Numbered from the stretch's first letter, positions 7,461 to 60,776 are shown. The stretch: DNA of 64,000 bases from an uncultured bacterium (GCA_903921675.1 CAIXQW010000256.1:12958-76957); one strand, 5' to 3'. A program made the numbers and translations. The notes: generated from the sequence alone by a model not told the origin.

Positions 7461-7540
7461 TAAAATAAAAATTTCCATTTTCACATATTCATAAGTTTTC
7501 AATAGACTATATTTTGCAGATAATAAAGTATTTTTACTGC

Positions 7541-10500: not shown

Positions 10501-10615
10501 TTTGAGCAATCGTACTTTTCCTAGTGCAGAAAACAAGCTAATTAATAGCATGGATATTCGTGGCAAAGCACAACAATATGTATATGAGAGTTTAGGTATT
10601 GCTAGTAGGAAATAG
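7541..10615 (+). CDS. fusion protein: GH3 (NagZ-like beta-N-acetylhexosaminidase) domain plus serine beta-lactamase/DD-peptidase-fold domain
   Basis: KHFPGHGNTDMDSHKDLP is the GH3/NagZ signature. The C-terminal half has the S-x-x-K motif ASVTK and a beta-lactamase-like HTGFTG. I prefer the ATG at 7541 (MHKFTLCLVALFVFLSTIVSSQ signal peptide) over the TTG at 7514 used in the track. Confidence 0.88.
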   Translation: MHKFTLCLVALFVFLSTIVSSQPANKSVKLPKPSVGINAWVDSIYNSLSLEQKIGQLFMIAAYSGGEKYNRQTIEKLITQNFIGGLIFMQGTAEAQAEQTNAFQKMSKVPLLIGMDAEWGLGMRLKGVDDFPRQIMLGAMKDTSLVYKMAQAIAYQCRRMGVHMDFAPDVDINNNPNNPVINFRSFGENKYAVARYATQYVKGLQDGGIIASAKHFPGHGNTDMDSHKDLPTISGSAKSLEDNELYPFREMINNQVGSIMIAHLQVPALDNTPNTPTTLSKKVVTDLLKNKYNYKGLIITDALNMSGVTKNRIPGELDYQAFMAGNDILLFSQDVSAAVKKISDAIENGTITEERLEESVKKILKAKYFVGLNKTRTISAENITTDLNQYTSSIRSLVAKEATTLLSDQYNILDKIRRNAAKKIAYVGIGTDAPNTFSKALNTIGISEMYFVNGNDANLANKLKDYDAVIIGIHNVALYPGKSFGLNISDIAIANALAKNKNSMLVLFGNPYAMKYFCDAKGAIVAYDEKPETQNVLAEIISGDFRAKGKLPVSVCPSYSAGSGIITLTNQLGEKDNTNPEVPREIKDIKKNDDKLLQLNCDNNSKDLIPCVKNIFHPVPVVCCFNPEAIGSNNDKLEKIDNLIENAIAKGAFPGCRILVAKEGKVFYDRSFGYTTFNKTQMVKENTLYDVASVTKVMATTLAVMKLYEQGKLSIENTLGDYLPITRGTNKSDIKLKDMLLHQAGLKSWIPFYKETLDSNKQQRKDIYSNSANGNYTVKVANNLYMNKHWTDTMWQRILDSPIGAKVYEYSDLDFIFLQKVVEKITGQSIDAYVEKEFYKPLGMSNTCFNPIKKGKPNASIAPTESDSYFRYQIIQGYVHDMAAAMFGGVSGHAGLFSTAGDISKVLQMLMNGGIYEGKRYFEKKTVDFFTTYKTTTRRGYGWDKTEPNTAKSNPTADNCSLLTFGHTGFTGTCVWADPTYNLQFIFLSNRTFPSAENKLINSMDIRGKAQQYVYESLGIASRK

Positions 10616-45905: not shown

Positions 45906-46850
45906 CTATCGATAATCTTTTGTTATAACAATCTTTCCGTTTTCATCAAACTGAAAAAAAGTTATAATGGGTAATGTTTTTGTTTGTTGTTTTTTGATAC
46001 TAAAATATTGGTATATTCCTTTTAGCACATACATTTTATCGCCTACTTTTTCAATCACTGTATTAAAATTTTTCGTGTCGCTGCTTTTTTGCCAAATATC
46101 ATTGTATCTAGTTTCTAGCTCTTCGCGGGTAGGATAACTGATATCCCAATACTGCTCCATGCTTGGTGAAAAATAAGAATAGATTGCATCAAAATTTTGC
46201 GATTCTTCTGCAGCTATTAGGTCATGAATATTTTGTATGTTTTGCCTATCAGCATCCGAGTAATTTTCTTCGGCATTATTCATTTGAAAAATAGAATCTG
46301 CTATTCGCTTTTCTTCGTTTGCCCTACGAATGTTATCTAAATTTGTAATGGCTTGCTCTGATTGTGGATCGGCAATACTTGGTGTGTTTGTAATTTCTGT
46401 AGGAGATGTGCTTGCATCTTCTGATAACTGAGCATTTCTATTAGATTGCATCCACCAAACGCCAAACCCAATCAAACCACCTATTAATAGCACACCCAAC
46501 AAAATAGCAATTGTATTGCTAGATTTTTTTTGCGGCACATAAGGCCTGGCTTGTTGTGTTTGATGCGGCTGCACTTGATGCGGCGAGTATGAAGCAGGCT
46601 GTGCAACAGGTGGCGGAGGTGTTGGTATTGGCGACACGGTGGCTCTGATAGCAGCTTCATACATTTGCTCGTAATTATTGCTATCAACACTGTTTAAATT
46701 CCAACTTGCATACAAATTTTGTAATTGTAGTTGAATATCTTGATCGGATAATGCACTCCATTTTTGTAGCAACTCTTGTGGTGCATTGCTGCCATTGCGT
46801 TGCAAATACAAATAATTAATGTAGCCGCGAATATTTAATTTATTAATCAT
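45906..46850 (-). CDS. bitopic membrane protein B: conserved cytoplasmic N-module, P/Q-rich linker, one TM helix, periplasmic C-domain
   Basis: 314 aa with no signal peptide. The N-terminus NIRGYINYLYLQRNGSNAPQELLQKWSALSDQDIQLQLQNLYASW is paralogous to the N-terminus of the 46867-48075 product. The helix is KK-SSNTIAILLGVLLIGGLIGFGVWW. Confidence 0.6.
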   Translation of the reverse strand: MINKLNIRGYINYLYLQRNGSNAPQELLQKWSALSDQDIQLQLQNLYASWNLNSVDSNNYEQMYEAAIRATVSPIPTPPPPVAQPASYSPHQVQPHQTQQARPYVPQKKSSNTIAILLGVLLIGGLIGFGVWWMQSNRNAQLSEDASTSPTEITNTPSIADPQSEQAITNLDNIRRANEEKRIADSIFQMNNAEENYSDADRQNIQNIHDLIAAEESQNFDAIYSYFSPSMEQYWDISYPTREELETRYNDIWQKSSDTKNFNTVIEKVGDKMYVLKGIYQYFSIKKQQTKTLPIITFFQFDENGKIVITKDYR

Positions 46851-46866: not shown

Positions 46867-48075
46867 TTATAAATTTAAGTTTGAAATATCTGGTAATTTA
46901 CTTTTAATCGTATCTATTAAATCTTCTAAAAAATTATGAGGAATAGCTGGTTGCTTAAAATACATCACTCTGTTTTGTGTGTCTAGCACGCTGTATAGAT
47001 TCATACTTTTACCATTGCAATCATATATACCATACACCTTTTCTTTCGGAAAATATTTAAAAAATAAATCCCCAGTTAAACAATCAGCATCACTTTCTGG
47101 ATTTTCTACTATTCCAATTTTCTTAGGTTTTGCAAAAGAATTTTCTGCAAGATCGCCAAAAAAACGATAATAATAACCATCTGAAAGTCTTGCTATTACT
47201 GCAAAGCGTGTATTAGTAATTATTTCTTGTTTCAAAATACTTGTCAATTTTTTGCGAACATCTTTGCTAGCGCTAGAGCAGGCATTCATGATATATTTGC
47301 CTTGCAAATTATCATCATAACCCAAACTGCCAATGATTACTTTTCTGAAACGCAGCTCTAACTGATTTGCTTCTTCTGCATGTAATTGTCCAAACACAGA
47401 TTTGTATTGTTCAAACTCTTGCTTACTATCAGTTATAAAATTGGCATTTACAAAAGCAATATTTTCATTACTCTTCAATATAAATTGAACGAAATTACCA
47501 GCACCTATCATCACCTTTCTGTGTTTTTTAGGTTTGCCAGTGTTGTCAATTGTTCTTTCGTAAATATTATCATCTACAGCTTTTAATGTTTCAAAGCTTG
47601 GCACATCCATTTTTGTAGGAGGCTGCAAATCCATTCTGCCAATTACTACATTACTATCATTGCGCACACTTAAATTATTGGTGATGGCATATACATTTTT
47701 TAAATTATTAAATAAATAAAATTGATACACAACATAAGCCAATGGAATAAATAAGGCTAGAAAAATTAAACCTGTATAGCTTTTCTTAGGGCTTGGTGGC
47801 ACAATAGGATTTGGCGAAGATGGATAAACCGATTGCGTATTCTTTGGTGATGGAGGTATTACGCCACTTTTATTTTGCAATAAAAATTGCTGAATAGTTT
47901 GCTCTTGCTGTTGGGTAGTATATTGCCAATGCGTAAATAAATTTTGTAATTGAACAGCAATCTCAGCTTCTGGCACCGCTGCCCATTTATCTAACAATGC
48001 TTGCGGCGCTGCTGTTTTATTTTTTTGAAAAAATAAATAACTGATAAACGATATAATATTATTTTTGGTAATCAT
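46867..48075 (-). CDS. bitopic membrane protein A: conserved cytoplasmic N-module, Pro-rich linker, one TM helix, ~290-aa periplasmic domain
   Basis: 402 aa. The N-terminus is NIISFISYLFFQKNKTAAPQALLDKWAAVPEAEIAVQLQNLFTHW and the helix is KK-SYTGLIFLALFIPLAYVVYQFYLF. Its start overlaps the upstream stop as ATGA. Confidence 0.6.
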   Translation of the reverse strand: MITKNNIISFISYLFFQKNKTAAPQALLDKWAAVPEAEIAVQLQNLFTHWQYTTQQQEQTIQQFLLQNKSGVIPPSPKNTQSVYPSSPNPIVPPSPKKSYTGLIFLALFIPLAYVVYQFYLFNNLKNVYAITNNLSVRNDSNVVIGRMDLQPPTKMDVPSFETLKAVDDNIYERTIDNTGKPKKHRKVMIGAGNFVQFILKSNENIAFVNANFITDSKQEFEQYKSVFGQLHAEEANQLELRFRKVIIGSLGYDDNLQGKYIMNACSSASKDVRKKLTSILKQEIITNTRFAVIARLSDGYYYRFFGDLAENSFAKPKKIGIVENPESDADCLTGDLFFKYFPKEKVYGIYDCNGKSMNLYSVLDTQNRVMYFKQPAIPHNFLEDLIDTIKSKLPDISNLNL

Positions 48076-48530
48076 ATTATTTTCTTGGCATTTTCTGTTT
48101 TATCTAACAGTTTTATTAATACATCATTTGGTACAGTTACCGCACCGTTTTTAATTACAAATTGTGCTTGTAAACTTTTATTCGTTTCGTTGTATTGAAT
48201 CAAAAAACCATCTTTGGCTAGATTACATTTTAATAATGCATCATTGCCATTGAAAAAATCTTTTGTTACTTGATTGGCTTGCGTCATGCTTATATTTAAT
48301 TGACTGCTTGTTTTTGCAATAGTTGCCAAAGGTCCATAGGCTTTATTTACCAGCATTACAAATGTATCTACTTTCATTTGGTTGGCATTGTCTTTTTCAA
48401 AACGGTTTTGCTCTACTTTTTCCACATTGCTACTCGCAACACTTTTATTGGTACAAAAAATAAAATAACTAGCTGCTGCAATCACAGCAGCAATTCCAAA
48501 ATAAATAAAGGACGAAATATTTTTTTTCAT
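48072..48530 (-). CDS. N-terminally anchored small periplasmic protein
   Basis: 152 aa. MKKNISSFIYFGIAAVIAAASYFIF is the anchor. Its ATG directly abuts the stop of the 1824-aa gene. Confidence 0.55.
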   Translation of the reverse strand: MKKNISSFIYFGIAAVIAAASYFIFCTNKSVASSNVEKVEQNRFEKDNANQMKVDTFVMLVNKAYGPLATIAKTSSQLNISMTQANQVTKDFFNGNDALLKCNLAKDGFLIQYNETNKSLQAQFVIKNGAVTVPNDVLIKLLDKTENAKKII

Positions 48531-51500
48531 TTATGGTTGATTAAAATAATTAATAAATGAGGCTTGCAAAAACCCTTGATGAATAATTGTACGCAACATG
48601 CCCCAATCAAAGTCTTGTGTATTATCTGTTACAAAATAATACGAAAATACTTTTGTGCCTTGCCCAATATTTTCTGGCTTGGTTAAATCTTTATTAGTAA
48701 TGCTTACTATCAATCTGCGCGAATTACTTGTTTGGCTGCCACCTTCATTAATTGTGCCAGTTTTTGCATAAAAATAATAGCCTGTATGCTGTGCTTTTAA
48801 TGGCGCTAATTGGGTAGCGGTTCCAGCTGTAATTACATCTGCCATGCCTTTAAAAATATTGTTGGCCAAAAATTCGTTGTATTGGGCTCTTGTCCATGTG
48901 CTATCTAGCATCCAAGCAGTGTACTTGTTTTTCTTTGGTAGAATATGTAATTCGTAATTTTTATTTTGTGTCATTAATCCATTATACATCTCTAGCATTT
49001 TGTATGCGGACAGTTGATAAGGATAACCACCAAGTGTAGCAGTTTTTAAACCTAAATTAAAATTTTCGTTGATTTCATTTTTCTTTTTACTACTGATGTA
49101 ATGTCTATTTTTTTGCGGGAAAGCACTCTCTTCTGGAAAACTCCAAATAAAACTACTACTCTTGTTCTTATTTAGTGTAGCATAAATAGTACTGTCAGTA
49201 AAATTAGTTCTACTACTACTTAGCACACTCATATCGTTTTTGTCTTTGTCCTTGCAAGCCAATCCAGCATTTACTTCCAGCCCATTTACCAATACACTAT
49301 TTTCGTTTGCAAAATAAGATTGACCGCTTTTACTTTTATCGCTGCTTGGCCAATTGCCTTTTCCCTTTGCGTAATTAGGCAATGCATATTGCACACCATC
49401 TACAATTACTCTTGGAAATAAATTATTAGCACCGTACTTTGTAGTCAATATATTTTTAACATCTGCATGATGCATACTATCCATAAAATCTGCTTTAGGA
49501 TAGCTGCCTAAAAATAACATTACAGATTGATAATAATTACTAGATTTTCTGATATAATCACTCATGCCTTGCCCATCGTAAGAATCAGCATCTGGCTCCC
49601 AAGGTTTTGCCAATTTTAAACCTGCATAATAATTTTGTTCGCCAAGATTAGTGTAGCTCAATTTCATTTTCTCCCAACCTGCATTTACCTGACTAGCTAT
49701 TACACTAGCCATAAGCGGTTTAATGCTAGAACCTGGTCCAAGATGCATATGAATTAAATTTGCATTTGCCCATTGGTCACGCTCATTGCCAGTATTACTA
49801 AAAAAGAAATGTTTTTGTTGTAAATTATAAATAGCAGTTGCATTGTTAGGGTCTAATTGTTTTCTGTTCTTTACATAGTCATTCATCAATCTAATATTGC
49901 CATCTCCATCCGCTGCTATTACAGTAAATTTCATTTTTCTGCTTTGTCTATTTTTATAAGAATTATGTATTAGTGACTGTGTAGTATTGAACCAATTATA
50001 ATCCAGTGTAATGGCAATATTTTTATTCAATACAGAATCTTGTGTGTATACATTTTTCATCGCATTTGCAAAATGATACATCCAAAAATTATTTTCCTTT
50101 TGCGGATACACTGTTTTGTATTCGCCATTCAGCCATTTATTAGTAGCAAATAATGTAAGATTTTTATTAAACGAAATCTGAAAATGATTAGTACTAGCAT
50201 CTACCATTACTAAATCGTCCGCAGCAATTGTATGCACAAAATTATTAGCCTTTTGCTCCATATTTTTGGTTTGATTTTTGCAAATAGCAATATGTACTGG
50301 TTTGCCAATTTGATTTTGCACATTGATAATACCAATTGGTTCTGTAGCATTTACAAACCATGTTTTTGGCAACAAAGCAAGCTGCACTGCATTTATATTA
50401 TCACTTTTAAAATATGGTAATGCTACTGTAGTATTTATGCTATTACCATAATGTAAATAAGCTGTATTGCTTTCTGAAGGATTGGCTTCTGCAATATTGC
50501 CATTCCACACTTTTATATTTTCAGTAGCAGGCAATTCAAGGTATAAATTTTTATTATACACAGCTTCATATTTTCCTTGGTCATACACAATATACAATGG
50601 GCTGTTAGCACGCAATGCGCTACTCGGATTTTTTTCTAAAGCAGTTAAAATACTTTTGGTGTATATGTCATCTACCTTTTCTGACTTGAAGGTTTTATAC
50701 CTTTCATCAGTTGTTATTTTTTTAATTAAATCTGTGTAGGAATATTTGATGTGCTTGCTTTGCAAACTGTCTTGCAAACTAATAAGCATCTGATTGAAAG
50801 GTCCTTCAATATTTTCTTTGGTTTCGTTTACAATTACATTAAAATTATTATTGTTCAATTCATTAGAGCGCACTGTAGCATAAGCTACTAATACAATTAC
50901 ACCCATTAGTATTAAATATCTACTTAAGCCTAACTGTAAATTCATTTTTTTGGCATTATATGCCACTGGCGATTGTATTAACGTTAAGAAAAATAATAGC
51001 ATTGGCACCAATACACTTACTCTACTTGTTAAACTTAAGAATGGAAAATCTTGCCCAAAAAACACAAAACGATTAGTAGCTGTAAGCCATACAAATAAAC
51101 TAATGGTAAATAAAATAAGTAATGGAATTAATCCTGCATAACTATCTACATCAAAATGCGAAGTATACTCTTCTGCACTATCCAATCGAATTTTGTAACT
51201 CAATAAATAAATAATCATTGGCAATGCAAGCAACACTAATAATAATATCATGGTCATTTGTCCAAGTTCGGAAATAATAAATCTTGCAACAACTACATCA
51301 CGCGTTTGGGTATTGTAGTTTACACCTACCTTGCTAAAAGCACGCAAGTTAATTTGTTTATCATTGTCGTAGGGTTTGGTTATGTAGGTATTGATGAACC
51401 ATTGATTTTCTGCAGTTTCAATAATTTTGCGAGTATTAAAACTATTGTAGGCATTATTAACAAGCAAACTACTAATGGGCTGATGAATGATAGAAGCACG

Positions 51501-54005
51501 AAATTGCACATGTTTAATAGCATCAGTGATTTTTTTATCTGCAACGTTTCTGGTATAAGGAATTAGCAAAATAATAAAATAGATAATAGCTGTTCCTGCA
51601 GAAGCGTAAAATAATTTGCTTTTGTTTTTAAATAAATATAAACATCCTACAACTGCTAAAAGTAATAATAAACCTACCCATAATTTGAATATTAGTAAAT
51701 AATAAAACAGCGATTTAAAACCCAAAATAAATAAATACAATACCAAACCAATTGCACCATAAATCCAATAGTTCCAAGGCTTGGTAAACATTTCTACAAA
51801 TTTGCTATTGCTGCCATCAAATGATTTTTTGAAAAAATTTAGTAATACATTTTTTAGCAATACAAATAATATAAATAAAATGCAAAAGCCTCTATCTGCA
51901 ATGGCAAAAAATAAAATAGTGCTAGCAGTGATAATAAAAGTTGGATTGTAAATAAAATAATAAGCGAATACGCGAATGTACTTTACAACCTTATTTTCTG
52001 GAGCATTGATTGATGGCACGCTGGCCTCAAAATATTGGTTGGCCTTAGCACTAAAAAAATGATAGGATAATAATGGTAAAATTACATCTATAATTCTGCG
52101 CAAAAATTCCACATGAACTATAAAATGCAAAAGCAATAAACCAAGCATTAAGATTACAAATACTTTATTAATATTACTTGGTGTATTTAATTTCCATTTA
52201 TCAGATTTTAAAAGCGTGGTTTCAAAAACTGAAGGCTTGTATTTTTTTAATAAGCGGAATGTAACAAGTGCTGCCACAATGCCTGTAGTAAATAGTAGCG
52301 TTACAGGAAAAGGCAATGCAATGCCAAACAAACTAAAATCGAATCCTATCAATGTATTTTCGAATTCGTATTTAGAAATATTTTCTAAAGGTGGGAAAGT
52401 AGCAATGCGCCAATACATAATAAAGCGCACTATCAGTAGTGCATATACAGCTGTCCAAATAATTGGCTCTATGCGATGCAATTTATTACTGCGTGCAAAA
52501 AATAGCAAGCCACAAAATAATAAAAACAAATAAGTAGCATAACTTATAATTTTATTGTAGCTAAATCCATTATCCGAAAAATCTCTTAATTCAAATAAAT
52601 AATCAACACCAGCATCTTGCGTGCTAAGCCAAAACGATTTATTTATTTTTTTGAAAGATGCACCTTTGTTGACATCTGCATAAGTAGCACTAAGCAAATG
52701 TTGCGGCGTGTGAGAAGTAAATTCCATTTGGCCTTGCACAGCATAATTGCTACGCAGATTAGCATGCGAAAAATAAAACCCTTCTTTTAATGGGTGCGTT
52801 ATTACATCATCATAGTTGGTAGCAATAAAACGAATATGTTTATCGCCATGATGTTGCTGCCCAGGATGCGTCAATAAATAGTTTTGCGGAAAATCAAAAA
52901 CCAAAGCTGTTTTGTTTTCTATCTTATCAAAAAATAATTTTTCGTTGGAATGATTAAACCCAATATGAAATTTTTTGTTGAAGTCTATTGCTGCTTGTGT
53001 AGTAAGATTGGTTGTAGCTTTATTGCCATCTGCCTTTAACGTAAATCCGTTTTCTATACAAGCCTTATCTGGAAATAGTGCATAGGATTTATTTTCTGCT
53101 TCATCATAATTTGCAATCAAATACGTTTCATCCATCTCTGCCAAAATTTGTTCTAGCAAATGTTGCGATTCTGCTTTTTGGCTTTTACAATTTTCTGCTA
53201 CTGCAAATAAATTGTATAGGCTTTTTCCATTGTGCAGTTCTTCATCTTCTATTTCCAAAACATCATTATATGGATTCGGCAAATTTAATTCTGCTAATAA
53301 ATCTGCATCTGCACAATGCAATTGAATCGTATATTTTACATTACGCTTATCATTTCCTTTTAATTTATTCCAAACACTTACATCACTAGTTTGCATATTT
53401 ACATCAATGCTAGTAGTATTGTTTTGCAAACTAAACTGATTGGCAATTTTTGCAGCAAATACATTATTCAATAATTTGTACTTCTTTTCTTTGCCATCAC
53501 TTACTTGCATAAAGATGGGTGTAAATACATTTTGTGTATGTAGGTACACTTTTCCATTTTGTTGCTTGAATTGTATACTACCTTCTGCATGCAAAGAGTC
53601 TGCTTCTGTGTATTGAAAATGCAAATCATTATCAAACCCAATTGCTTTGTTGCTAATGCCGTAATGATCATTATTAAAATACCAAGGCTGGTTGGTACTA
53701 GGATTAATAATTTTTTTTACAGCAATTATCGAAAAAATAAAAACAATTGCAAGCAATGCTAGGCTATACAAATTGGTTCTTTGTTTTGCAAAATTTGCTA
53801 AATGCATCATCGCATTTATATCGCCATTAGGCAATGTACTTGCTTTGGATTGTACTTGCTCTTCTGTAGTTAATTGCAAAATATAAAACACGCAACTACC
53901 TACAATAGCTACTGTAAGCATAGTACTGATGGCATTGCCCAGAAAAAAATTAATTGCTATCAAACCAAGGCTTGCAGCAATTAATCCAATTTTTTTTACA
54001 CTCAT
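48531..54005 (-). CDS. giant polytopic protein: 3 TM helices, ~390-aa ectodomain, SEDS-like multi-TM core, TM anchor, and a class-B-PBP-like ectodomain with a complete transpeptidase motif set
   Basis: 1824 aa. SxxK is GPGSSIKPL (Ser1427, nt 49725-49727), SxN is KSSNYY (1488-1490, nt 49536-49544), and KTG is YAKTGTI (Lys1748, nt 48762-48764). The SEDS-like motifs are TRDVVVARFIISELGQM (nt 51258-51305) and FPFLSLTSRVS. Confidence 0.72.
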   Translation of the reverse strand: MSVKKIGLIAASLGLIAINFFLGNAISTMLTVAIVGSCVFYILQLTTEEQVQSKASTLPNGDINAMMHLANFAKQRTNLYSLALLAIVFIFSIIAVKKIINPSTNQPWYFNNDHYGISNKAIGFDNDLHFQYTEADSLHAEGSIQFKQQNGKVYLHTQNVFTPIFMQVSDGKEKKYKLLNNVFAAKIANQFSLQNNTTSIDVNMQTSDVSVWNKLKGNDKRNVKYTIQLHCADADLLAELNLPNPYNDVLEIEDEELHNGKSLYNLFAVAENCKSQKAESQHLLEQILAEMDETYLIANYDEAENKSYALFPDKACIENGFTLKADGNKATTNLTTQAAIDFNKKFHIGFNHSNEKLFFDKIENKTALVFDFPQNYLLTHPGQQHHGDKHIRFIATNYDDVITHPLKEGFYFSHANLRSNYAVQGQMEFTSHTPQHLLSATYADVNKGASFKKINKSFWLSTQDAGVDYLFELRDFSDNGFSYNKIISYATYLFLLFCGLLFFARSNKLHRIEPIIWTAVYALLIVRFIMYWRIATFPPLENISKYEFENTLIGFDFSLFGIALPFPVTLLFTTGIVAALVTFRLLKKYKPSVFETTLLKSDKWKLNTPSNINKVFVILMLGLLLLHFIVHVEFLRRIIDVILPLLSYHFFSAKANQYFEASVPSINAPENKVVKYIRVFAYYFIYNPTFIITASTILFFAIADRGFCILFILFVLLKNVLLNFFKKSFDGSNSKFVEMFTKPWNYWIYGAIGLVLYLFILGFKSLFYYLLIFKLWVGLLLLLAVVGCLYLFKNKSKLFYASAGTAIIYFIILLIPYTRNVADKKITDAIKHVQFRASIIHQPISSLLVNNAYNSFNTRKIIETAENQWFINTYITKPYDNDKQINLRAFSKVGVNYNTQTRDVVVARFIISELGQMTMILLLVLLALPMIIYLLSYKIRLDSAEEYTSHFDVDSYAGLIPLLILFTISLFVWLTATNRFVFFGQDFPFLSLTSRVSVLVPMLLFFLTLIQSPVAYNAKKMNLQLGLSRYLILMGVIVLVAYATVRSNELNNNNFNVIVNETKENIEGPFNQMLISLQDSLQSKHIKYSYTDLIKKITTDERYKTFKSEKVDDIYTKSILTALEKNPSSALRANSPLYIVYDQGKYEAVYNKNLYLELPATENIKVWNGNIAEANPSESNTAYLHYGNSINTTVALPYFKSDNINAVQLALLPKTWFVNATEPIGIINVQNQIGKPVHIAICKNQTKNMEQKANNFVHTIAADDLVMVDASTNHFQISFNKNLTLFATNKWLNGEYKTVYPQKENNFWMYHFANAMKNVYTQDSVLNKNIAITLDYNWFNTTQSLIHNSYKNRQSRKMKFTVIAADGDGNIRLMNDYVKNRKQLDPNNATAIYNLQQKHFFFSNTGNERDQWANANLIHMHLGPGSSIKPLMASVIASQVNAGWEKMKLSYTNLGEQNYYAGLKLAKPWEPDADSYDGQGMSDYIRKSSNYYQSVMLFLGSYPKADFMDSMHHADVKNILTTKYGANNLFPRVIVDGVQYALPNYAKGKGNWPSSDKSKSGQSYFANENSVLVNGLEVNAGLACKDKDKNDMSVLSSSRTNFTDSTIYATLNKNKSSSFIWSFPEESAFPQKNRHYISSKKKNEINENFNLGLKTATLGGYPYQLSAYKMLEMYNGLMTQNKNYELHILPKKNKYTAWMLDSTWTRAQYNEFLANNIFKGMADVITAGTATQLAPLKAQHTGYYFYAKTGTINEGGSQTSNSRRLIVSITNKDLTKPENIGQGTKVFSYYFVTDNTQDFDWGMLRTIIHQGFLQASFINYFNQP

Positions 54006-54011
54006 ATTGGC

Positions 54012-55079
54012 TTATTGAATCTGATAACCCATGTATGCTAACCCTTGCGGAATAGCCACTTGATTATCTTTTAATATTTGTATGATGGTTTTTATTTCGT
54101 TTGGTATTGCATCTGCAGGTGTAGATGCGCTGATGCTATTTTGCTTTTCTTGTGCAGATAATTGTTCACCTTTCATTTGCTTTACATTATAGTCGTCGCT
54201 ACCTTGGCGGCGCTCTGTTTTGGTATGTGTAATAGCAATGTACTGCACTAATATTTGCATTGCCAAAGAAAGTGCTTCAGACTTTTGTTGTTTATTTAAT
54301 GCCGCTTTTGCAGGGTTTACCAAATTCAATAATGCGTTTTCAAAATAGGCTGCATCTGCATCGCGCACTTCTTTTAGTTGTTGTTGCAAATCGCGCAATT
54401 GCTCTAGCAACCCATGATTAGTAGCTTGCAATTGTACAATTTGTTGATTGGCATTGGTAATATCATGGCTGATAGATGTGTTGATAGATGAATTTTCTGT
54501 ACTAGGATTTTTAGAAGAAGATTTCATTTTTTCTCTAATCAATAAACCAGTTAGCAAAGCTGTAATTCCTGCTAAACTCCAAAGCAATACATCACTATTC
54601 TTTTTTTCTTTTGGTAGCAAATCGCTGCCATATTCTACAGTGGTTTGGTTTTCCGGATTCGCTTCTGAAGTTGGATCAACATTTGCAGTAGCTCCACTTT
54701 CTTTTTCGTTTACAAACTTTATATTGCCTCCTTTATCTGCTGCACGATTGATCAATTGCTCCAACAAAGGCATGCCTGCATATTTTTTTGCATCTACAGT
54801 ATCGTACTGCACTTTTAAATCTTGCTGCTGTGTAGTTGTAAACTGCAATAAATTTACCTTGCCTACATCTACATTATTTTTTGCTCGCCACATATTTTTT
54901 GCATCTTTTGCTATCGAAAACGAGTCGGTATTTATATTGCAAGATATTACACAGTATTTTTCGTTTACACGTATAGATGCATTGTATGGATAATCTTTTA
55001 GCTTGCGCACATGATCGTTTTGTGCTACTACAGTTGTGGCAGAAAATAATGTAAGCCCAATAATAATTCCAAGTTTCAT
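54012..55079 (-). CDS. type I single-pass membrane protein: ~150-aa periplasmic domain, one TM helix, ~175-aa cytoplasmic coiled-coil tail
   Basis: Signal peptide MKLGIIIGLTLFSATTVVAQ and helix VLLWSLAGITALLTGLLI followed by REKMK. Heptad-like QQIVQLQATNHGLLEQLRDLQQQLKEVRD follows. Confidence 0.6.
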   Translation of the reverse strand: MKLGIIIGLTLFSATTVVAQNDHVRKLKDYPYNASIRVNEKYCVISCNINTDSFSIAKDAKNMWRAKNNVDVGKVNLLQFTTTQQQDLKVQYDTVDAKKYAGMPLLEQLINRAADKGGNIKFVNEKESGATANVDPTSEANPENQTTVEYGSDLLPKEKKNSDVLLWSLAGITALLTGLLIREKMKSSSKNPSTENSSINTSISHDITNANQQIVQLQATNHGLLEQLRDLQQQLKEVRDADAAYFENALLNLVNPAKAALNKQQKSEALSLAMQILVQYIAITHTKTERRQGSDDYNVKQMKGEQLSAQEKQNSISASTPADAIPNEIKTIIQILKDNQVAIPQGLAYMGYQIQ

Positions 55080-55098: not shown

Positions 55099-57708
55099 TT
55101 AGAATAATAAATCGTTTGTAGTTGGTGGCGGAGGAGGTGGTGGCGTATTGATATCAAATAACAATGGATTGAAAGTAGTATTAGTTTGTTTGGCAGTAAC
55201 AGGCAATCCTTTTACATCATCATTTAAGCATCTTAAATAATTTGTATTGATATAGTTTGGAAATAATGATGGAACAATCAATTTCAACTCTACTTCATCA
55301 TAATCATGAATTACAGATAATGGAATTATTTTTTCTACTTTGCCTTGCAGCATTCTGCGCACTTTAAAACCTGTGCTTGTAAAATTGATGGTGGCTTTAC
55401 TTGCAGCTTGCACATTATCTGCAATAGATTTATTGCCTAAGTTATAGGCAGTTGCGCCAATAATAAATTCGCTTGTTTGCAAGCCTTCTAACTGCAAGTT
55501 GGCATCTTTTTTTACAAATACTTTTTTATCTGTATTGCTTGCTTCTATGCTACCTACTAAATATTCAAACCACTTTTTGCTGGTCACTTTTGCTTCTTTG
55601 ATTGGCGGCGGGGCTTCGCCTTTTATAATTTGAATTGGGTGCCCAACTACATCTGTATTTTGTTGGATAGATTTATTAAACACACCTTTGATGCAAATAT
55701 CTTTCAGCTCGCTACCAGATAACAATGCAATTTTATTTTCGGCAATTTGCAATCTAGTTTGCAGTTTGCTTTTCATCATAGCGGCTAATGGCGCAAACAT
55801 AAATCCTCTACCTGTAAGCACTACACCATCAAAGTCGTGGTCTGTTTTGTTTTGTTGAATCATGCTAAGATGTGCAATTACTTTTTCGGTAATGGCTTCG
55901 CATACATCATTGATATAGCCAAACAAATCGCCACCAAATTCCATTTGTCCAAGCAAATCTATAATGGTTTGAAAATCTACATCATTGCTTGCTACATTAC
56001 TCCAAGTATTATCTAGTTTTTTTGCATTTGCCCAATCTGCAAATACTACATCTACATTATCTGTTTTAAAATTAAATTTTAGGCGCTCTATTTCTGTATA
56101 AAACTTAGTAATCAAAACCAAGTTATTACCTTTTAGCTCGTCTATAATTTTTGTATTAATATATCTATTCACGCCACTTTGCCCATTACTAGCTTCGCGT
56201 ATGTAATGCAATAGTGTTTCAAAAATTGCATTGGTAATTAAATTACCTGCACCAGCAAATCCGTTTCTATAAATTGGCTGTAGGTCAAAAATATTTTCTG
56301 CGCCTGTTCTAATAATAGAAAAGTCTGTAGTTCCTTTTCCTACATCTACTATTATATAATCTTTGTTTTTATTTACAACTGCGTTTTTTCTATTGATGTA
56401 CCCAATAAAAGAAGCATCGCTTTCAGAGATGGTCAATACTTCCCAAGCTAATAATTTTCCTTTGTAAGCATCGCTATTAGCTAGTTCTGCAAATATTTTA
56501 TTGAGTTGAATTTTTGTGTTTTGAATATTAGCACTGTCATATATATTTGGTACTAATAATAGTAATCTTACAAAACGAGTAGCATTTTTATAACGCAGAA
56601 ATTCTTTTTGCAAGAAGGACTCTAGCATCGTTTTTAAAATGGTATTATTTACTTTTTGTTTTATTTCTTTTAAAGTAAGCGGTAAAGTATGATTGGCAGC
56701 ATCATTAAATTCAAAATTAATACTGCTTAAAATTTCGTTGTGTTGATGAATTATTTTTAGGTTTGGCAATTGATGAAATTTGTTATTCACCAACTCTTGC
56801 ATACTATTGGTATCTATCAATAGTTTTAGATTTTCTGCTTGCGATTTTATAAATTCGCTTGCATCAATATCTTCGTAATTATCTGTAAGATGCTCGCGCA
56901 AAAAGAAAAGTGACTTATAAAAATTACTTCCTTTGTCTTCTTGATAATAACTAGCTTGCTCATTGCGTTCTATCCATTTGTTATTAGTATAAAACAATTT
57001 TATTTGTTGAAATAAATTTTCGATACTTGGCTTATCCTCGTATATCACATTGCCTACTTCGTAACGCTTAGTAGCCATTTGGCTACTTTCGCTACCAAAG
57101 TCTAATGCAATACCCAAAAACTGAGATGGATGCGCCAAAGAAACTCCAATGGCAAATACATACTCTTGTTGGTTTGCATGCAATATTATTTTTACGGCCA
57201 ATTCATTACTTTCAAACAACTGTGCAGTAATAGGTGCAGTATGTACACAACTTAATTGCACACCATTGGCATCGCTGCGTAATTGCACTCCTATTTGCGT
57301 ATTAATATTGCCCAACACTTTTGCTATTATTGGAACCGAAGAAATGATCGGATTTGGCTTTGGTTTTCCTGCAGTAGCATTTAAAATATCTTCGTAAAAG
57401 TGCTCTTTCTTTTTTTCTTCTATAATAGGAGCTTCTTGCTTCAGTAATTGTTCCTTTGCATACAAATGGATAGTTGCTTCATTGCCTAACAAATTACCAT
57501 CTACCTCTATATCGTGTAATGCAATGTCAAATTCATTTTCTACAAAACAAGTAAACATGTTTTTTGCATTTATTTGCATTACTTGCACAGCATCACTATC
57601 TGCTAGTTCTACAATAAAATGTTGCGGATTAGATAGTTTTGCAGCGTTATTAAATTCTGCATTTATTTCTCTGCGATGATTGATAGTAATAGGTATTGCG
57701 TATTGCAT
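55099..57708 (-). CDS. cytoplasmic actin/Hsp70 (ASKHA)-fold ATPase with ~195-aa N-terminal and ~170-aa C-terminal extensions
   Basis: 869 aa with no signal peptide or TM helix. Phosphate-1 is IALDFGSESS (Asp203), phosphate-2 is IIVDVGKGTTDFSII (Asp455), and the adenosine-like motif is GVVLTGRGFMFAPL. The C-terminus is PPPPPPPTTNDLLF. Confidence 0.72.
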   Translation of the reverse strand: MQYAIPITINHRREINAEFNNAAKLSNPQHFIVELADSDAVQVMQINAKNMFTCFVENEFDIALHDIEVDGNLLGNEATIHLYAKEQLLKQEAPIIEEKKKEHFYEDILNATAGKPKPNPIISSVPIIAKVLGNINTQIGVQLRSDANGVQLSCVHTAPITAQLFESNELAVKIILHANQQEYVFAIGVSLAHPSQFLGIALDFGSESSQMATKRYEVGNVIYEDKPSIENLFQQIKLFYTNNKWIERNEQASYYQEDKGSNFYKSLFFLREHLTDNYEDIDASEFIKSQAENLKLLIDTNSMQELVNNKFHQLPNLKIIHQHNEILSSINFEFNDAANHTLPLTLKEIKQKVNNTILKTMLESFLQKEFLRYKNATRFVRLLLLVPNIYDSANIQNTKIQLNKIFAELANSDAYKGKLLAWEVLTISESDASFIGYINRKNAVVNKNKDYIIVDVGKGTTDFSIIRTGAENIFDLQPIYRNGFAGAGNLITNAIFETLLHYIREASNGQSGVNRYINTKIIDELKGNNLVLITKFYTEIERLKFNFKTDNVDVVFADWANAKKLDNTWSNVASNDVDFQTIIDLLGQMEFGGDLFGYINDVCEAITEKVIAHLSMIQQNKTDHDFDGVVLTGRGFMFAPLAAMMKSKLQTRLQIAENKIALLSGSELKDICIKGVFNKSIQQNTDVVGHPIQIIKGEAPPPIKEAKVTSKKWFEYLVGSIEASNTDKKVFVKKDANLQLEGLQTSEFIIGATAYNLGNKSIADNVQAASKATINFTSTGFKVRRMLQGKVEKIIPLSVIHDYDEVELKLIVPSLFPNYINTNYLRCLNDDVKGLPVTAKQTNTTFNPLLFDINTPPPPPPPTTNDLLF

Positions 57709-58134: not shown

Positions 58135-59736
58135 TTACTTTTTAATAGGGGTGTATGGGCTACCATTACTCAATGTTCTTGGCTTTTCTATAAATTCTTT
58201 ACAGAATAAGCTTTCTTGCAAAGGCATATTTTTTCCACCTACATTCATCCAGGTGCAAAGTGTGTAAAAAAATCGATGGAGTTGATAGGGTTTTGCTTTG
58301 TTGATTAATAAACTATCTGGCACATTCCAAGTAATAAATGGCACATCATGCAACCACGGATTGCCGCCTTGTGGCGTATGGCCCAAAAAATCTCTATAGT
58401 CATAAATTTCTTCGGCATGGTCGCTAAAGTAGATGGATTGTGTGTTTGGCGTTTTGCTTAGCAAATTAAAAATGCTGTCTAATAAAAAATCATTATACAA
58501 CACAGCATTGTCATATTCGTTTAGCACTTGTCGTTTTACATCGCTATTAGCACATGGAAAAAATTGATGTGTAGTATCTGTGCTATTAAACACATTAAAG
58601 CTTGCAGGGTATCTATTTTTATATTGAAAATGTGTGCCCATTAAATGCAATACTATCAATTTGTTTTGCGCAGTGTCTTGCAAAGCTTTTTGCAGCTCAG
58701 GCATTAATAAAATATCGAATCTATCTTTAGGTTCTATTTTATTTTTTGTGGCATCATCTATGGCAAAATAAGTATGCTTTGCTCTGCTAGTAGCCATGGT
58801 GATAGAATTATAAAAAATACCATCCTTAGCTTGGTTGCTTATCCAAAAAGTTTTCATGCCTACAGCATTTGCGATATCTAAAATATTAGGGCAAGAAAAA
58901 TCGTGAGTAGCATTACTGCCACACGGCATCGTTAGGCATCTACTAAGGCATTCCACAGTACTTGTATTGCTACTAATTACATCTGTAAACAAGCTGATAT
59001 CATTGCGTTTGCTTAATAATGGCGTAGTGTTTCTGCAGTAATTATACATACCAAAATGATGGCGCGAAGTACTTTCTCCAATAATTAAAACATAAGTATT
59101 GCCATGTCCATTTTGCAATTTTTGAAATTGAAATGGAGCTAAAGTTTTTTGCATTTGCACACTATCAATTACAATATTTTTATAATAGGTTTTTAAAACG
59201 TCATTGCCTACGTATTCATCTTTCAAAAAACCTGCCTTATCGCCTTTGGCATTTGCAAAAAATAAATAATAAGAAGCACCAATTAGCAATGTAGAAAAAA
59301 CAATCCATTTTTGTTTTTTAGTAAAAAAATATAGATAATGCTTGCTTCTATAAATAAAAACAATAGCTACTACAATGCCTATCAATACAATAATAATTGC
59401 CCACATTGGTATAGTAGTAACTGTATATTCTACAAGCTCTTGCCAATACGATTCGTATAAAATTTTTAGCGCTAATTCGTTAAATGGGGCATGCTCTTGT
59501 ATATAATGTCCTGTTTCGGTAAGACTCCAAGCAAATGTAAATATGCATAAGATTAACCAAAATATTTTTCTAAATAAAATATTATTTATAGCTGCATAAG
59601 GCAAAAACAAAACGCATAAAAACGAATAATATAAAATGGCTTGCGCTCCTAAATTTCTACCAATAGCAGTGGCTGCAATTATTGGCAAACTAACTAGTAA
59701 AAAAAGTGTAAAAAATCGGATTAGTAAATGTTTCAA
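58135..59736 (-). CDS. phosphoethanolamine transferase (EptA/MCR-related sulfatase-fold membrane enzyme)
   Basis: 533 aa with a TTG start and about 5 N-terminal TM helices. The sulfatase-fold domain carries LIIGESTSRHHFGMYNYCRNTTP, HLMGTHFQYKNRYP and SDHAEE. Confidence 0.78.
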   Translation of the reverse strand: MKHLLIRFFTLFLLVSLPIIAATAIGRNLGAQAILYYSFLCVLFLPYAAINNILFRKIFWLILCIFTFAWSLTETGHYIQEHAPFNELALKILYESYWQELVEYTVTTIPMWAIIIVLIGIVVAIVFIYRSKHYLYFFTKKQKWIVFSTLLIGASYYLFFANAKGDKAGFLKDEYVGNDVLKTYYKNIVIDSVQMQKTLAPFQFQKLQNGHGNTYVLIIGESTSRHHFGMYNYCRNTTPLLSKRNDISLFTDVISSNTSTVECLSRCLTMPCGSNATHDFSCPNILDIANAVGMKTFWISNQAKDGIFYNSITMATSRAKHTYFAIDDATKNKIEPKDRFDILLMPELQKALQDTAQNKLIVLHLMGTHFQYKNRYPASFNVFNSTDTTHQFFPCANSDVKRQVLNEYDNAVLYNDFLLDSIFNLLSKTPNTQSIYFSDHAEEIYDYRDFLGHTPQGGNPWLHDVPFITWNVPDSLLINKAKPYQLHRFFYTLCTWMNVGGKNMPLQESLFCKEFIEKPRTLSNGSPYTPIKK

Positions 59737-59957: not shown

Positions 59958-60776
59958 ATGAATTTATCCCATTTTTTTGCAGATGGTCAGAATATTTGGC
60001 AAATACTTTTGTTTGCTGTTGTGTTTTTGGTTTGTTGGAACTTAGAATATTTATTTGGTGTATCTAAAAACTACAACAAGTGGAAACATTCTTTTACCAA
60101 TGCTTTATTCATCATACCTGGTGGCATTATGCAATTGATATTAGGTGTATTATTTGTAAAAGTATTATTGTGGGAAAATGCAAATGGAGTAGGGTTATTA
60201 CCTCGATTGAATTTGGCTAGTAATTGGCAGCAAATAGTTGTAACCTTTATTGTATTAGATTTCTTTTATTGGATGTATCATTTTTTAATGCATAAAATTG
60301 GCTTTGCGTGGCGTTTTCATGCAGTGCATCATAGCGATAAAGTAATGAATGTAACTACATCTCTGCGTGAGCATCCAGGAGAAACATTAATACGCTTAGG
60401 GCACTATATGCTTGCAGTATGGATGCTTGGCACTAGTTTTTGGATTATTACTCTACATCAGTTTATACAAATTGTAAGTAAAATAATTGTGCATAGCAAT
60501 TGGCGCTTGCCAGATAATGTAGATAAATGGGTTAGCTATGTATTTCTTACGCCTAATATGCACCATGTGCATCACCACGAGGAACAGCCTTATACGGATA
60601 GTAACTACGGCGATTTGTTTAGCATTTGGGATAGAGTATTTGGTACATTCCGCTATTTGCCAGCACACGAAGTGCGCTTTGGCTTAGATGTAGAATTGTT
60701 TGATAACGAAGAACAATTAAAGTTTAAGAAACTAATTAAAGTACCTTTTACAAAAGCAAATTTATCTAACGAATAG
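59958..60776 (+). CDS. fatty acid hydroxylase / sterol desaturase superfamily membrane protein
   Basis: 272 aa. The His boxes are HFLMHK, RFHAVHH and HHVHHH, with hydrophobic N-terminal helices. Confidence 0.85.
   Translation: MNLSHFFADGQNIWQILLFAVVFLVCWNLEYLFGVSKNYNKWKHSFTNALFIIPGGIMQLILGVLFVKVLLWENANGVGLLPRLNLASNWQQIVVTFIVLDFFYWMYHFLMHKIGFAWRFHAVHHSDKVMNVTTSLREHPGETLIRLGHYMLAVWMLGTSFWIITLHQFIQIVSKIIVHSNWRLPDNVDKWVSYVFLTPNMHHVHHHEEQPYTDSNYGDLFSIWDRVFGTFRYLPAHEVRFGLDVELFDNEEQLKFKKLIKVPFTKANLSNE

Follow-up and report, generated by a model that had tools for sequence, protein, structure and literature searches.

A family of giant polytopic membrane proteins from Bacteroidota with a predicted C-terminal class B penicillin-binding module

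Organization of the locus

We analyzed a 64,000-nucleotide stretch of DNA from an uncultured bacterium (GCA_903921675.1 CAIXQW010000256.1:12958-76957; hereinafter the window), in which an uninterrupted ORF of 1824 codons plus stop on the minus strand codes for a giant membrane protein that is embedded in a run of genes on the same strand. The protein can be divided into the following parts, and is accompanied by the genes listed after them:

48531..54005 (-), whole ORF, 1824 aa: giant polytopic protein with a C-terminal class B penicillin-binding protein (PBP) module
53706..54005 (-), residues 1-100: three N-terminal TM helices (3-22, 25-45, 78-100), N-terminus inferred to lie inside the cell
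52560..53705 (-), residues 101-482: predicted beta-rich extracytoplasmic N-terminal domain without a recognized fold class
51564..52559 (-), residues 483-814: ten TM helices (TM4-TM13) with invariant W532-R533, P539 and D704/G706
51261..51563 (-), residues 815-915: 101-aa extracytoplasmic loop resembling SEDS ECL4, with invariant R836, N867-Q-W869, G894, Q900, D903 (candidate catalytic Asp), R908 and E913
50964..51260 (-), residues 916-1014: TM14-TM16, with an outer loop at 977-995 (TNRFVFFGQDFPFLSLTS) that resembles the SEDS 'G.PLPF(I/L)SYGGS' loop
50871..50939 (-), residues 1023-1045: TM17, inferred in-to-out membrane anchor of the PBP module
50019..50870 (-), residues 1046-1329: helical and beta-rich non-catalytic region of about 285 aa, in the position of a pedestal
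48534..50018 (-), residues 1330-1824: penicillin-binding transpeptidase domain with S1426-x-x-K1429, S1488-x-N1490 and K1748-T-G-T, and an insertion of about 125 aa relative to E. coli FtsI between SxN and KTG
55099..57708 (-), upstream, 869 aa, no TM segment noted in its translation: candidate actin/Hsp70-superfamily (ASKHA) ATPase with DFGSE (203-207), DVGKGTTD (455-462) and LTGRG (631-635)
54012..55079 (-), 355 aa: signal peptide, outer domain, one TM helix (~164-181) and a cytoplasmic coiled-coil tail
48072..48530 (-), 152 aa: N-terminal TM anchor and a small outer domain; its start codon directly abuts the stop codon of the giant gene
46867..48075 (-), 402 aa: conserved cytoplasmic N-domain, Pro-rich linker, one TM helix and an outer domain (a RodZ-like architecture); overlaps the 152-aa gene by 4 nt
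45906..46850 (-), 314 aa: paralogue of the 402-aa protein with the same architecture

A preliminary description of this gene, made from the sequence alone, had proposed a single polypeptide combining an N-terminal ectodomain, a SEDS-like core and a bPBP-like transpeptidase with intact catalytic motifs, without stating the strand. The observation itself is confirmed, as the ORF is real and every motif that had been named is present: GPGSSIKPL at 1423-1431, KSSNYY at 1487-1492, YAKTGTI at 1746-1752, TQTRDVVVARFIISELGQM at 899-917 (D903, E913) and FPFLSLTSRVSVL at 987-999. However, the SxxK residues are S1426 and K1429 rather than S1427 and K1430, the earlier numbering being off by one. The distance from SxxK to SxN is 62 residues and that from SxxK to KTG is 322 residues, against 187 in E. 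coli FtsI (S307/K494); hence the large insertion that had been suspected is real and lies between SxN and KTG.

Conservation and phyletic distribution

Sequence searches recovered 17 full-length homologues at 38-98% identity, and a HMMER scan of 1.84 billion representative proteins with a profile of the core recovered 239 clusters at 50% identity, nearly all of 1700-2100 aa with the same layout and all from Bacteroidota. Of the retrieved homologues, 150 are 1600 aa or longer, and full-length co-linear versions are found in the isolate genomes of Taibaiella koreensis, T. chishuiensis, T. helva, T. lutea, Edaphocola flava, E. aurantiacus and several Emticicia species. In a MAFFT alignment of 151 full-length members S1426, K1429, P1430, S1488, N1490, D903, E913, Q900, R908, R836, F982, G984, Q985 and D986 are 100% conserved and K1748-T-G-T is 98-99% conserved, while P988 and S991 reach 99% and 96%, and P102, N111, P163, N180 and G349 in the N-terminal outer domain exceed 90%. 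These data refute the possibility that the long ORF is an artefact, such as a chimeric contig or a decayed pseudogene read through by chance, for which nothing speaks beyond its unusual length and the absence of database annotation. The few members whose annotation was seen are mostly named 'hypothetical protein', and literature searches found no description of the family.

Membrane topology and structure prediction

AlphaFold2 (AF2) models were obtained for residues 1-1062 and 1020-1824, both with good confidence. Combining the predicted helices with hydropathy, we infer 17 TM helices: three at the N-terminus, ten before the 101-aa loop, three after it and the anchor of the PBP module. The preliminary description had counted about 14 helices ahead of the loop and had a single helix following the FPFLSLTS loop; we find two (996-1014 and 1023-1045), both of which are needed for the PBP module to end up outside the cell. 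Short loops inferred to lie inside carry 23 K/R against 4 on short outer loops, and by this positive-inside inference the PBP module, the N-terminal outer domain and the 815-915 loop are all placed outside the cell. The N-terminal outer domain is confidently modelled (pLDDT mostly about 90) with about 30 strands, but Foldseek searches with the 1-1062 model yielded no significant structural neighbor for it in the PDB or BFVD, the beta-propeller, porin and lectin hits at probabilities below 0.1 being disregarded. The earlier remark that the size of the protein and its N-terminal module are unusual is correct.

The C-terminal third has the predicted fold of a class B PBP

The model of residues 1020-1824 (pLDDT 87.6) retrieves exclusively class B PBPs among its top 50 Foldseek matches in the PDB (E 1.4e-11 to 3e-9, probability 1.00, TM-score up to 0.68 on the target), including PBP3, PBP2, PBP2a, PBP5fm and SpoVD, and none of these is a carboxypeptidase, a BlaR/MecR sensor or a beta-lactamase. 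The identity to solved PBPs is only 10-15%, and the query itself has no Pfam hit at E<=10, neither to PF00905 nor to the PBP_dimer domain PF03717; nevertheless, 8 of 16 close homologues hit PF00905 with a best E of 1.5e-6, although the match is faint for the Taibaiella homologue, whereas PF03717 was found in none of them. NCBIfam and PDB sequence searches with the whole protein and with family profiles found nothing useful for this half either. An hhalign comparison with E. coli FtsI (P=5e-4) aligns the classic 'D..tGeilAm..P.ydPN ... PGS(T/S)xKP' blocks with the motifs in register. The TM anchor at 1023-1045 is followed by the region in the pedestal position, which is alpha/beta in the model, and the Foldseek alignments to full-length bPBPs span 720-890 columns. 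The three active-site motifs thus occur in canonical order within a fold that is closest to that of the bPBPs, and this part of the earlier interpretation is supported.

Evidence bearing on a SEDS-like core

In contrast, the proposal that the preceding polytopic region is a SEDS-like core is plausible but has not been demonstrated. Pfam and NCBIfam searches at E<=10 with the query, Pfam searches with 16 homologues, and PDB sequence and profile searches gave no SEDS hit, with the whole protein or with family profiles, and the HMMER scan with the core profile recovered only other giant proteins and no ordinary SEDS. Profile-profile comparison by hhalign is non-significant (P 0.012-0.17; probabilities below 4%). 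The best alignment (P=0.012, probability 3.6%) places eight family-invariant residues in register with SEDS-invariant residues of E. coli RodA, namely R836/R210, P843/P217, T899-Q900/T249-Q250, D903/D262, E913/E271, G984/G333, P988/P337 and S991/S340, but P rises to 0.06-0.19 with a deeper profile of 78 SEDS sequences, and with the shallower query profile the alignment in SEDS register disappears altogether. For building the deeper profile a homology search with a RodA/FtsW alignment returned only near-identical enterobacterial RodA, which added little diversity, and a scan of viral contigs for SEDS found none; a metagenome scan gave 80 SEDS loci, which were used for the profile. Block-shuffle nulls were marginal, reaching the observed score in 1 of 120 trials and, against the deeper profile, in 8 of 120.

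At the level of structure, the only helical membrane proteins among the top 50 listed of 199 Foldseek PDB matches to the untrimmed 1-1062 model are two FtsW entries, of which 8p1u_A has the highest probability of all hits (0.54; E 0.32, TM-score 0.27, rmsd 17.5 A) and 8bh1_A follows at 0.14 (E 1.7, TM-score 0.23). These matches are below any usual threshold even though the query model is confident; on the other hand, for a target family named in advance, comprising about 10 of 350,542 chains, E=0.32 against the whole database is far more meaningful. The inferred topology does fit the layout expected of a RodA/FtsW protein fused to its bPBP: the 101-aa outer loop ends in the invariant D903, whose equivalence to RodA D262 is inferred from the above alignment, and is followed by three TM helices and a K-rich inner loop. 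Yet the 10-13 helices before this loop compare with 7 in SEDS, and the SEDS motifs of TM4 and ECL3 (QPxE..K, QPDLG) have no evident counterpart. Of the conditions set beforehand as refuting the proposal, the absence of a significant SEDS profile hit formally applies to the SEDS half, whereas the motif residues proved to be conserved and the SxxK domain was placed outside rather than in the cytoplasm. The earlier interpretation is accordingly only partly supported.

Conserved gene neighborhood

We then examined the genomic context, which had not been considered in the preliminary description. The ASKHA-like gene, the genes for small bitopic proteins and the giant gene are syntenic on one strand with tiny gaps or overlaps in Taibaiella, Edaphocola, Emticicia, Lacihabitans, Saprospiraceae and others. 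The ASKHA-like gene lies upstream of the giant gene in 39 of the 50 related loci, and in two further distant loci called genes comparable in size alone (808/335 aa and 871/213/281 aa) sit directly upstream of the giant gene. Homologues or same-sized ORFs of the 355-aa gene occupy the same position in related loci.

The assignment of the 869-aa protein to the actin/Hsp70 superfamily rests only on sub-threshold hits, all falling on the same motifs: DFGSE, DVGKGTTD and LTGRG, which are nearly invariant and correspond in order to the phosphate-1 (DxG[ST]), phosphate-2 (DxGxGT[TF]D) and adenosine (LTGGG-like) motifs. They comprise Pfam DDR in 10 of 14 members, MreB_Mbl and FtsA (E 0.02-0.13), NCBIfam MreB (E=0.0012), and hhalign matches to DnaK (P=1e-4), MreB (P=5e-4) and FtsA (P=3e-3), while PDB sequence and profile searches returned nothing. 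PADLOC defence models gave no meaningful hits on any protein of the operon, making an anti-phage system unlikely. A scan of the operon for sigma-70 promoters and terminators found fewer sites than in shuffled sequence and is not informative for Bacteroidota. The operon is patchily distributed and hence presumably accessory, and envelope-lipid genes, coding for a CptA-like PEtN transferase and an OlsE-like hydroxylase, lie next to it.

Functional implications

Based on these observations we propose, with only slightly better than even confidence, that the giant protein is one subunit of a conserved and hitherto undescribed envelope machine of Bacteroidota. The analysis itself establishes the conservation of the family and, through the fold search, the class B PBP fold of the C-terminal ~800 residues, with an anchor helix, a pedestal-position region and a D,D-transpeptidase domain whose SxxK/SxN/KTGT active site is intact; the 17-TM inner-membrane topology and the periplasmic orientation of this module come from structure prediction and charge distribution, and beta-lactam acylation and transpeptidase activity are likewise inferred. 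Also inferred is that the polytopic part preceding the anchor is most likely a very diverged SEDS-type lipid II glycan polymerase, its last module being the outer loop ending in D903 and three TM helices with a 'G-x-x-x-P-F-L-S' outer loop; if so, glycan strands made at D903 would be cross-linked by S1426 of the same polypeptide. More speculatively, the extra six or so helices and the 380-aa beta-rich outer domain may be regulatory or substrate-binding additions, and the protein would be co-transcribed with the ~870-aa candidate cytoplasmic actin/Hsp70-like ATPase and three to four single-pass membrane proteins, which, by analogy with MreB-RodZ-MreC-RodA-PBP2 or FtsA-FtsN-FtsQLB-FtsWI, would position or activate the synthase.

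It remains possible, though we consider it less likely, that the C-terminal module is a true bPBP while the polytopic part is a different kind of membrane domain, such as a transporter or flippase for a lipid-linked precursor, a scaffold or a sensor, with glycan polymerization being performed by a separate SEDS or class A PBP and the resemblance to SEDS motifs being convergent or due to chance. The negative or non-significant outcome of all sequence and profile tests for SEDS, the lack of a significant membrane-protein neighbor, the presence of 16 helices rather than 10 and the absolutely conserved residues without a SEDS counterpart (W532-R533, P539, D704/G706, R908 and Q985-D986) speak for this view. 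However, FtsW is still the best-probability structural hit and the only helical membrane family recovered, the invariant acidic residue at the loop/TM boundary and the co-linear register of eight invariant residues are hard to obtain by chance (1 of 120 shuffles), and bPBPs work with, and are sometimes fused to, SEDS partners (PMC12516126). In its boldest form, which is doubtful but not excluded, the core would be the founding member of a new class of membrane enzyme or transporter obligatorily fused to a class B PBP, forming with its dedicated candidate actin-like ATPase and bitopic partners a cytoskeleton-guided envelope-synthesis machine specific to Bacteroidota, a third system alongside the Rod complex and the divisome.

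A further and rather unlikely alternative is that the transpeptidase-fold domain does not cross-link ordinary peptidoglycan but acts as a D,D-carboxypeptidase or endopeptidase, as a beta-lactam or muropeptide sensor, or on a different D-Ala-containing envelope polymer, such that the operon builds or remodels a specialized structure and not bulk cell wall. While the divergence of the domain beyond Pfam recognition in the query, its insertion, the patchy distribution of the operon and the adjacent envelope-lipid genes speak for this, all its top structural neighbors are class B biosynthetic transpeptidases and its three catalytic motifs are conserved across the family (98-100%).

SEDS-bPBP pairs are the core engines of bacterial growth and division and major antibiotic targets, and the family reported here, with over 200 sequence clusters, is missed by standard domain searches. 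It joins a class B PBP to a 16-helix membrane domain with its own invariant acidic site. If the SEDS-like reading is right, this would be the most diverged SEDS known and a natural single-chain polymerase-transpeptidase with a built-in regulatory ectodomain, useful for understanding how the two activities are coupled; if it is wrong, the family points to a new partner class for bPBPs. As several hosts (Taibaiella, Edaphocola, Emticicia) are cultivable, the hypothesis is directly testable.

Comparison with known systems

With class B PBPs such as FtsI/PBP3, PBP2/MrdA, SpoVD and PBP2a, the C-terminal module shares an N-in single TM anchor, a following non-catalytic region and a transpeptidase domain with the SxxK, SxN and KTG(T) motifs, but it is distinguished by the absence of PF00905 and PF03717 hits in the query, by the insertion between SxN and KTG and by its fusion behind 16 further TM helices and a 380-aa outer domain. 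With the SEDS glycosyltransferases (RodA, FtsW, SpoVE; PF01098) the core shares a large outer loop followed by three TM helices and a cytoplasmic C-terminus, an invariant Asp at the loop/TM boundary with an invariant Glu about 10 residues later, a 'G...P-[FL]-[LI]-S' motif in the last outer loop and physical coupling to a bPBP; it differs in lacking a significant sequence, profile or fold match, in the number of helices before the loop, in the 101-aa length of that loop, in the absence of the QPxExxK and QPDLG motifs and in its additional invariant residues (W532-R533, R908, Q985-D986).

SEDS-bPBP fusions are a documented architecture, with 117 'bifunctional class B synthases' reported that were found because InterPro recognizes both domains and are described as large (>800 aa), for example those of Senegalimassilia faecalis (931 aa), Rhodococcus jostii (947 aa) and Pedobacter ginsengisoli (1341 aa) (PMC12516126). 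Like them, the present protein combines a polytopic membrane domain with a bPBP transpeptidase in one polypeptide, and in R. jostii the gene is flanked by the actin-like gene mreB; however, the present family is about twice that size and invisible to the SEDS profile, neither domain is detected by Pfam in the query, and it has an extra N-terminal module of three TM helices and a beta-rich domain as well as its own ~870-aa candidate ATPase and bitopic partners. Finally, as in the Rod complex (MreB-RodZ-MreCD-RodA-PBP2) and the divisome core (FtsA-FtsN-FtsQLB-FtsW-FtsI), the gene set combines a candidate cytoplasmic actin-superfamily ATPase, several bitopic membrane proteins, one of RodZ-like layout, and a putative polymerase-transpeptidase pair. 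Yet none of the partners is detectably homologous to MreC, MreD, RodZ or FtsQLBN, and the candidate ATPase is 2.5 times the size of MreB and only weakly similar to it, so that the relationship to these systems is one of analogy and not of membership.

The gene encoding the giant protein

We identified a single open reading frame, running from ATG to stop and encoding 1824 aa, at the following position:
48531-54005, minus strand, the giant gene.
The plus-strand translation of this region, in contrast, is full of stop codons. All the sequence strings on which the preliminary description relied are present in the translation, namely GPGSSIKPL at 1423-1431, KSSNYY at 1487-1492, YAKTGTI at 1746-1752, TQTRDVVVARFIISELGQM at 899-917 and FPFLSLTSRVSVL at 987-999, and its observation is thus upheld. 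However, the serine and lysine of the SxxK motif are S1426 and K1429, one residue off the numbering originally assigned to them, whereas S1488, N1490, K1748, D903 and E913 had been numbered correctly. The distance from SxxK to KTG is 322 residues, as against 187 in E. coli FtsI, indicating that a large insertion lies between SxN and KTG. This insertion in the transpeptidase domain (within residues 1490-1748) amounts to about 125 aa relative to E. coli FtsI, is well-modelled in the predicted structure and contains the conserved residues P1531, G1659 and M1670.

A conserved, unannotated Bacteroidota family

A word-indexed search recovered 17 full-length homologues of 1818-1834 aa at 38-98% identity, which are named "hypothetical protein" (Taibaiella koreensis) or, in one case, "FtsI/PBP2". 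We then performed a full HMMER scan of 1.84 billion representative proteins with a profile of the membrane core (residues 478-1062), which recovered 239 clusters at E<=1e-3; almost all of these are 1700-2100 aa in length with the core in the same place, and no ordinary SEDS protein of ~400 aa was recovered. In a MAFFT alignment of 151 full-length members W532, R533, R836, Q900, D903, R908, E913, F982, G984, Q985, D986, S1426, K1429, P1430, S1488, N1490 and G1659 are 100% conserved, while K1748-T-G-T is 98-99% conserved.

The genome hits are all from Bacteroidota, and comprise Taibaiella, Edaphocola and Sediminibacterium (Chitinophagaceae), Emticicia and Lacihabitans (Cytophagales), Saprospiraceae and Sphingobacteriales. 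Contigs carrying the Bacteroidota-specific operon described below at four of the recovered loci (L024, L044, L034 and L036) are labelled as "uncultured Bifidobacterium sp.", "Cyanobium sp. NIES-981" and "Chitinophaga pinensis" MAGs; the first three of these (L024, L044 and L034), with Bifidobacterium or Cyanobium labels, are probably mis-binned or mislabelled. The window itself has the appearance of a low-GC (33%) Chitinophagaceae chromosome, with T9SS cargo, TonB receptors and MutL. Three large secreted proteins with T9SS C-terminal sorting domains (Por_Secre_tail or CHU_C) confirm a Bacteroidota host with type IX secretion, and a further gene codes for a probable peptidoglycan-recycling enzyme:
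23257-26079, minus strand, secreted protein with a T9SS C-terminal sorting domain.
35046-37292, plus strand, secreted protein with a T9SS C-terminal sorting domain.
61652-63553, minus strand, secreted protein with a T9SS C-terminal sorting domain.
7514-10615, plus strand, 1033-aa fusion of a GH3 (NagZ-like) glycosidase with a serine beta-lactamase/PBP4*-type domain.

The C-terminal module and membrane topology

Pfam searches do not detect a transpeptidase domain in the protein itself, but 8 of 16 homologues hit PF00905 with a best E-value of 1.5e-6. We modelled residues 1020-1824 with AF2 using a 42-sequence alignment (pLDDT 87.6, pTM 0.84). A Foldseek search of the PDB with this model gave 185 hits at E<=1e-3, and all of the top 50 are class B PBPs, including PBP3 of E. 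coli, P. aeruginosa and A. baumannii, gonococcal PBP2, PBP5fm, PBP2a, SpoVD, S. aureus PBP1 and Y. pestis PBP2, with E-values of 1.4e-11 to 3e-9, a probability of 1.00 and a TM-score on the target of up to 0.68. An hhalign comparison of the family profile with E. coli FtsI (P=5e-4) aligns "ITLDY.L", "AADGDGNIRLM.D....DPN" and "GPGSSIKP" with "LSIDERLQ", "VDVNTGEVLAMANSPSYNPN" and "EPGSTVKP" of FtsI. Between the anchor helix (1023-1045) and the transpeptidase domain lies a 285-aa alpha/beta region, which corresponds to the pedestal by position alone, as it shows no hit to PF03717.

The AF2 model of residues 1-1062 is likewise confident (pLDDT 87.4, pTM 0.87), and combining its helices with hydropathy gives 17 TM helices. 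With the N-terminus placed inside, short cytoplasmic loops carry 23 K/R and short outer loops carry 4. Based on this inference, the beta-rich domain at 101-482, the 101-aa loop at 815-915, and the loop at 977-995 along with everything after residue 1045 lie outside the cell. A cytoplasmic location of the SxxK domain, which had been set beforehand as grounds for rejecting the proposal, is therefore not what the inferred topology shows.

Possible relationship of the membrane core to SEDS proteins

The preliminary description had interpreted the membrane core as SEDS-like, but sequence searches provide no significant support for this. Neither the protein nor its homologues show any Pfam or NCBIfam hit to SEDS at E<=10, sequence and profile searches of the PDB gave no hits, and no SEDS protein was recovered in the scan of 1.84 billion proteins with the core profile. 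We next compared the core by means of hhalign with profiles built from E. coli RodA and FtsW, T. thermophilus RodA and 75 metagenomic SEDS proteins. The 3-sequence SEDS profile gave P=0.012 with a probability of 3.6%, the 78-sequence profile gave P=0.06-0.19, and use of a shallow 12-sequence query profile gave nothing. In block-shuffle nulls the observed score was reached in 1 of 120 and 8 of 120 trials.

Nevertheless, there is some positive but weak evidence. The alignment found by hhalign is exactly the register originally proposed, and extends it, with eight residues invariant in the giant family falling on residues invariant in SEDS: R836/R210, P843/P217, T899-Q900/T249-Q250, D903/D262, E913/E271, G984/G333, P988/P337 and S991/S340. 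A Foldseek search with the 1-1062 model has no hit at E<=1e-3, but the hit with the highest probability of all is FtsW (8p1u_A, probability 0.54, E=0.32), a second FtsW (8bh1_A) is also listed, and no other helical membrane protein appears among the 50 listed of 199 matches. As SEDS was named in advance and represents about 10 of 350,542 chains, this is more informative than the raw E-value suggests, although the TM-scores of 0.23-0.27 are poor. Furthermore, the layout matches that of SEDS TM7-ECL4-TM8-10 followed by a bPBP anchor, with a big outer loop, an invariant Asp at the loop/TM boundary, three helices, a cytoplasmic turn and then the PBP anchor. Published surveys also document SEDS-bPBP fusions and SEDS proteins with outward-facing beta-rich inserts (PMC12516126). 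Taken together, we consider the SEDS-like reading to be the best single hypothesis, somewhat more likely than not but not established, and the core fails the profile test for membership of the SEDS family as currently defined. The earlier interpretation is thus only partly supported, holding for the transpeptidase module but remaining a hypothesis for the SEDS-like core. That the core is instead something new is less likely, but a substantial possibility.

Conserved gene neighborhood

We then examined the genomic context, which the preliminary description had not considered. On the minus strand the genes for the 869-, 355-, 1824-, 152-, 402- and 314-aa proteins are separated by 19, 6, 0, -4 and 16 nt. 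The relevant neighbors include:
55099-57708, minus strand, 869-aa protein with actin/Hsp70-type nucleotide-binding motifs and a poly-Pro C-terminus.
46867-48075, minus strand, 402-aa protein with a RodZ-like architecture.
45906-46850, minus strand, 314-aa paralogue of the 402-aa protein.
58135-59736, minus strand, CptA/EptA-like phosphoethanolamine transferase.
59958-60776, plus strand, OlsE-like fatty-acid/ornithine-lipid hydroxylase.

TBLASTN searches with the operon proteins against 50 related loci show the same order and strand almost everywhere, with the gene for the 869-aa protein found upstream of the giant gene in 39 of them. In two further distant loci, called genes that correspond by size alone (808/335 aa and 871/213/281 aa) sit directly upstream of the giant gene. 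In one lineage (locus L002, with the same genes in locus L003) the operon is interrupted by a 664-aa SLFN/AlbA_2-HATPase gene (7940-9934 in L002) located between the 348-aa gene and the giant gene, where the gene for the putative actin-like ATPase is otherwise expected, and a DUF4160/DUF2442 pair (15515-16186 in L002) is inserted after the giant gene; these look like mobile or defence-type insertions. The phosphoethanolamine transferase and hydroxylase genes sit just upstream of the operon, and as a FA_hydroxylase gene also precedes it in Taibaiella koreensis (locus L001), there is a hint of a loose link to envelope-lipid modification.

No TM segment is seen on inspection of the translation of the 869-aa protein, which is not annotated by standard libraries. 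It carries DFGSE, DVGKGTTD and LTGRG, the three actin/Hsp70 nucleotide-binding motifs, which are nearly invariant in its family. All database hits are weak and fall on these motifs: Pfam DDR in 10 of 14 members, MreB_Mbl and FtsA; NCBIfam MreB at E=0.0012 and the ParM-like PRTRC-D; and hhalign matches to DnaK (P=1e-4), to MreB (P=5e-4, over 179 columns spanning the phosphate-2 and adenosine motifs) and to FtsA (P=3e-3). The adjacent 402- and 314-aa paralogues share a conserved ~60-aa cytoplasmic N-domain (...APQxLLxKW...QLQNL...W), a Pro-rich linker, one TM helix and an outer domain, an architecture that is RodZ-like but without detectable homology to RodZ. The 355-aa protein has a signal peptide, an outer domain, one TM helix and a cytoplasmic coiled coil, while the 152-aa protein is an N-anchored outer protein. 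A search with the PADLOC models gave no meaningful hits on the operon proteins. By analogy only, the set resembles an elongasome or divisome core.

Proposed mechanism and comparison with known fusions

The fold search and residue conservation show that the protein possesses a class B PBP transpeptidase module with a conserved active site, whereas its periplasmic orientation is inferred from topology by the positive-inside rule, and its catalytic activity is inferred from sequence and predicted structure alone. We further infer that the preceding membrane module would polymerize lipid II at D903, with E913, R836, R908 and the GQD-FPFLS loop, and hand strands to S1426 in cis. More speculatively, the N-terminal beta-rich domain and extra helices may regulate the enzyme or bind substrate, and the putative actin-like ATPase might position or activate the synthase through the cytoplasmic domains of the bitopic partners. 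We found no paper describing this family in the literature. The known fusions (PMC12516126) are described as large (>800 aa; with examples of 931, 947 and 1341 aa), are profile-detectable, and lack this operon.
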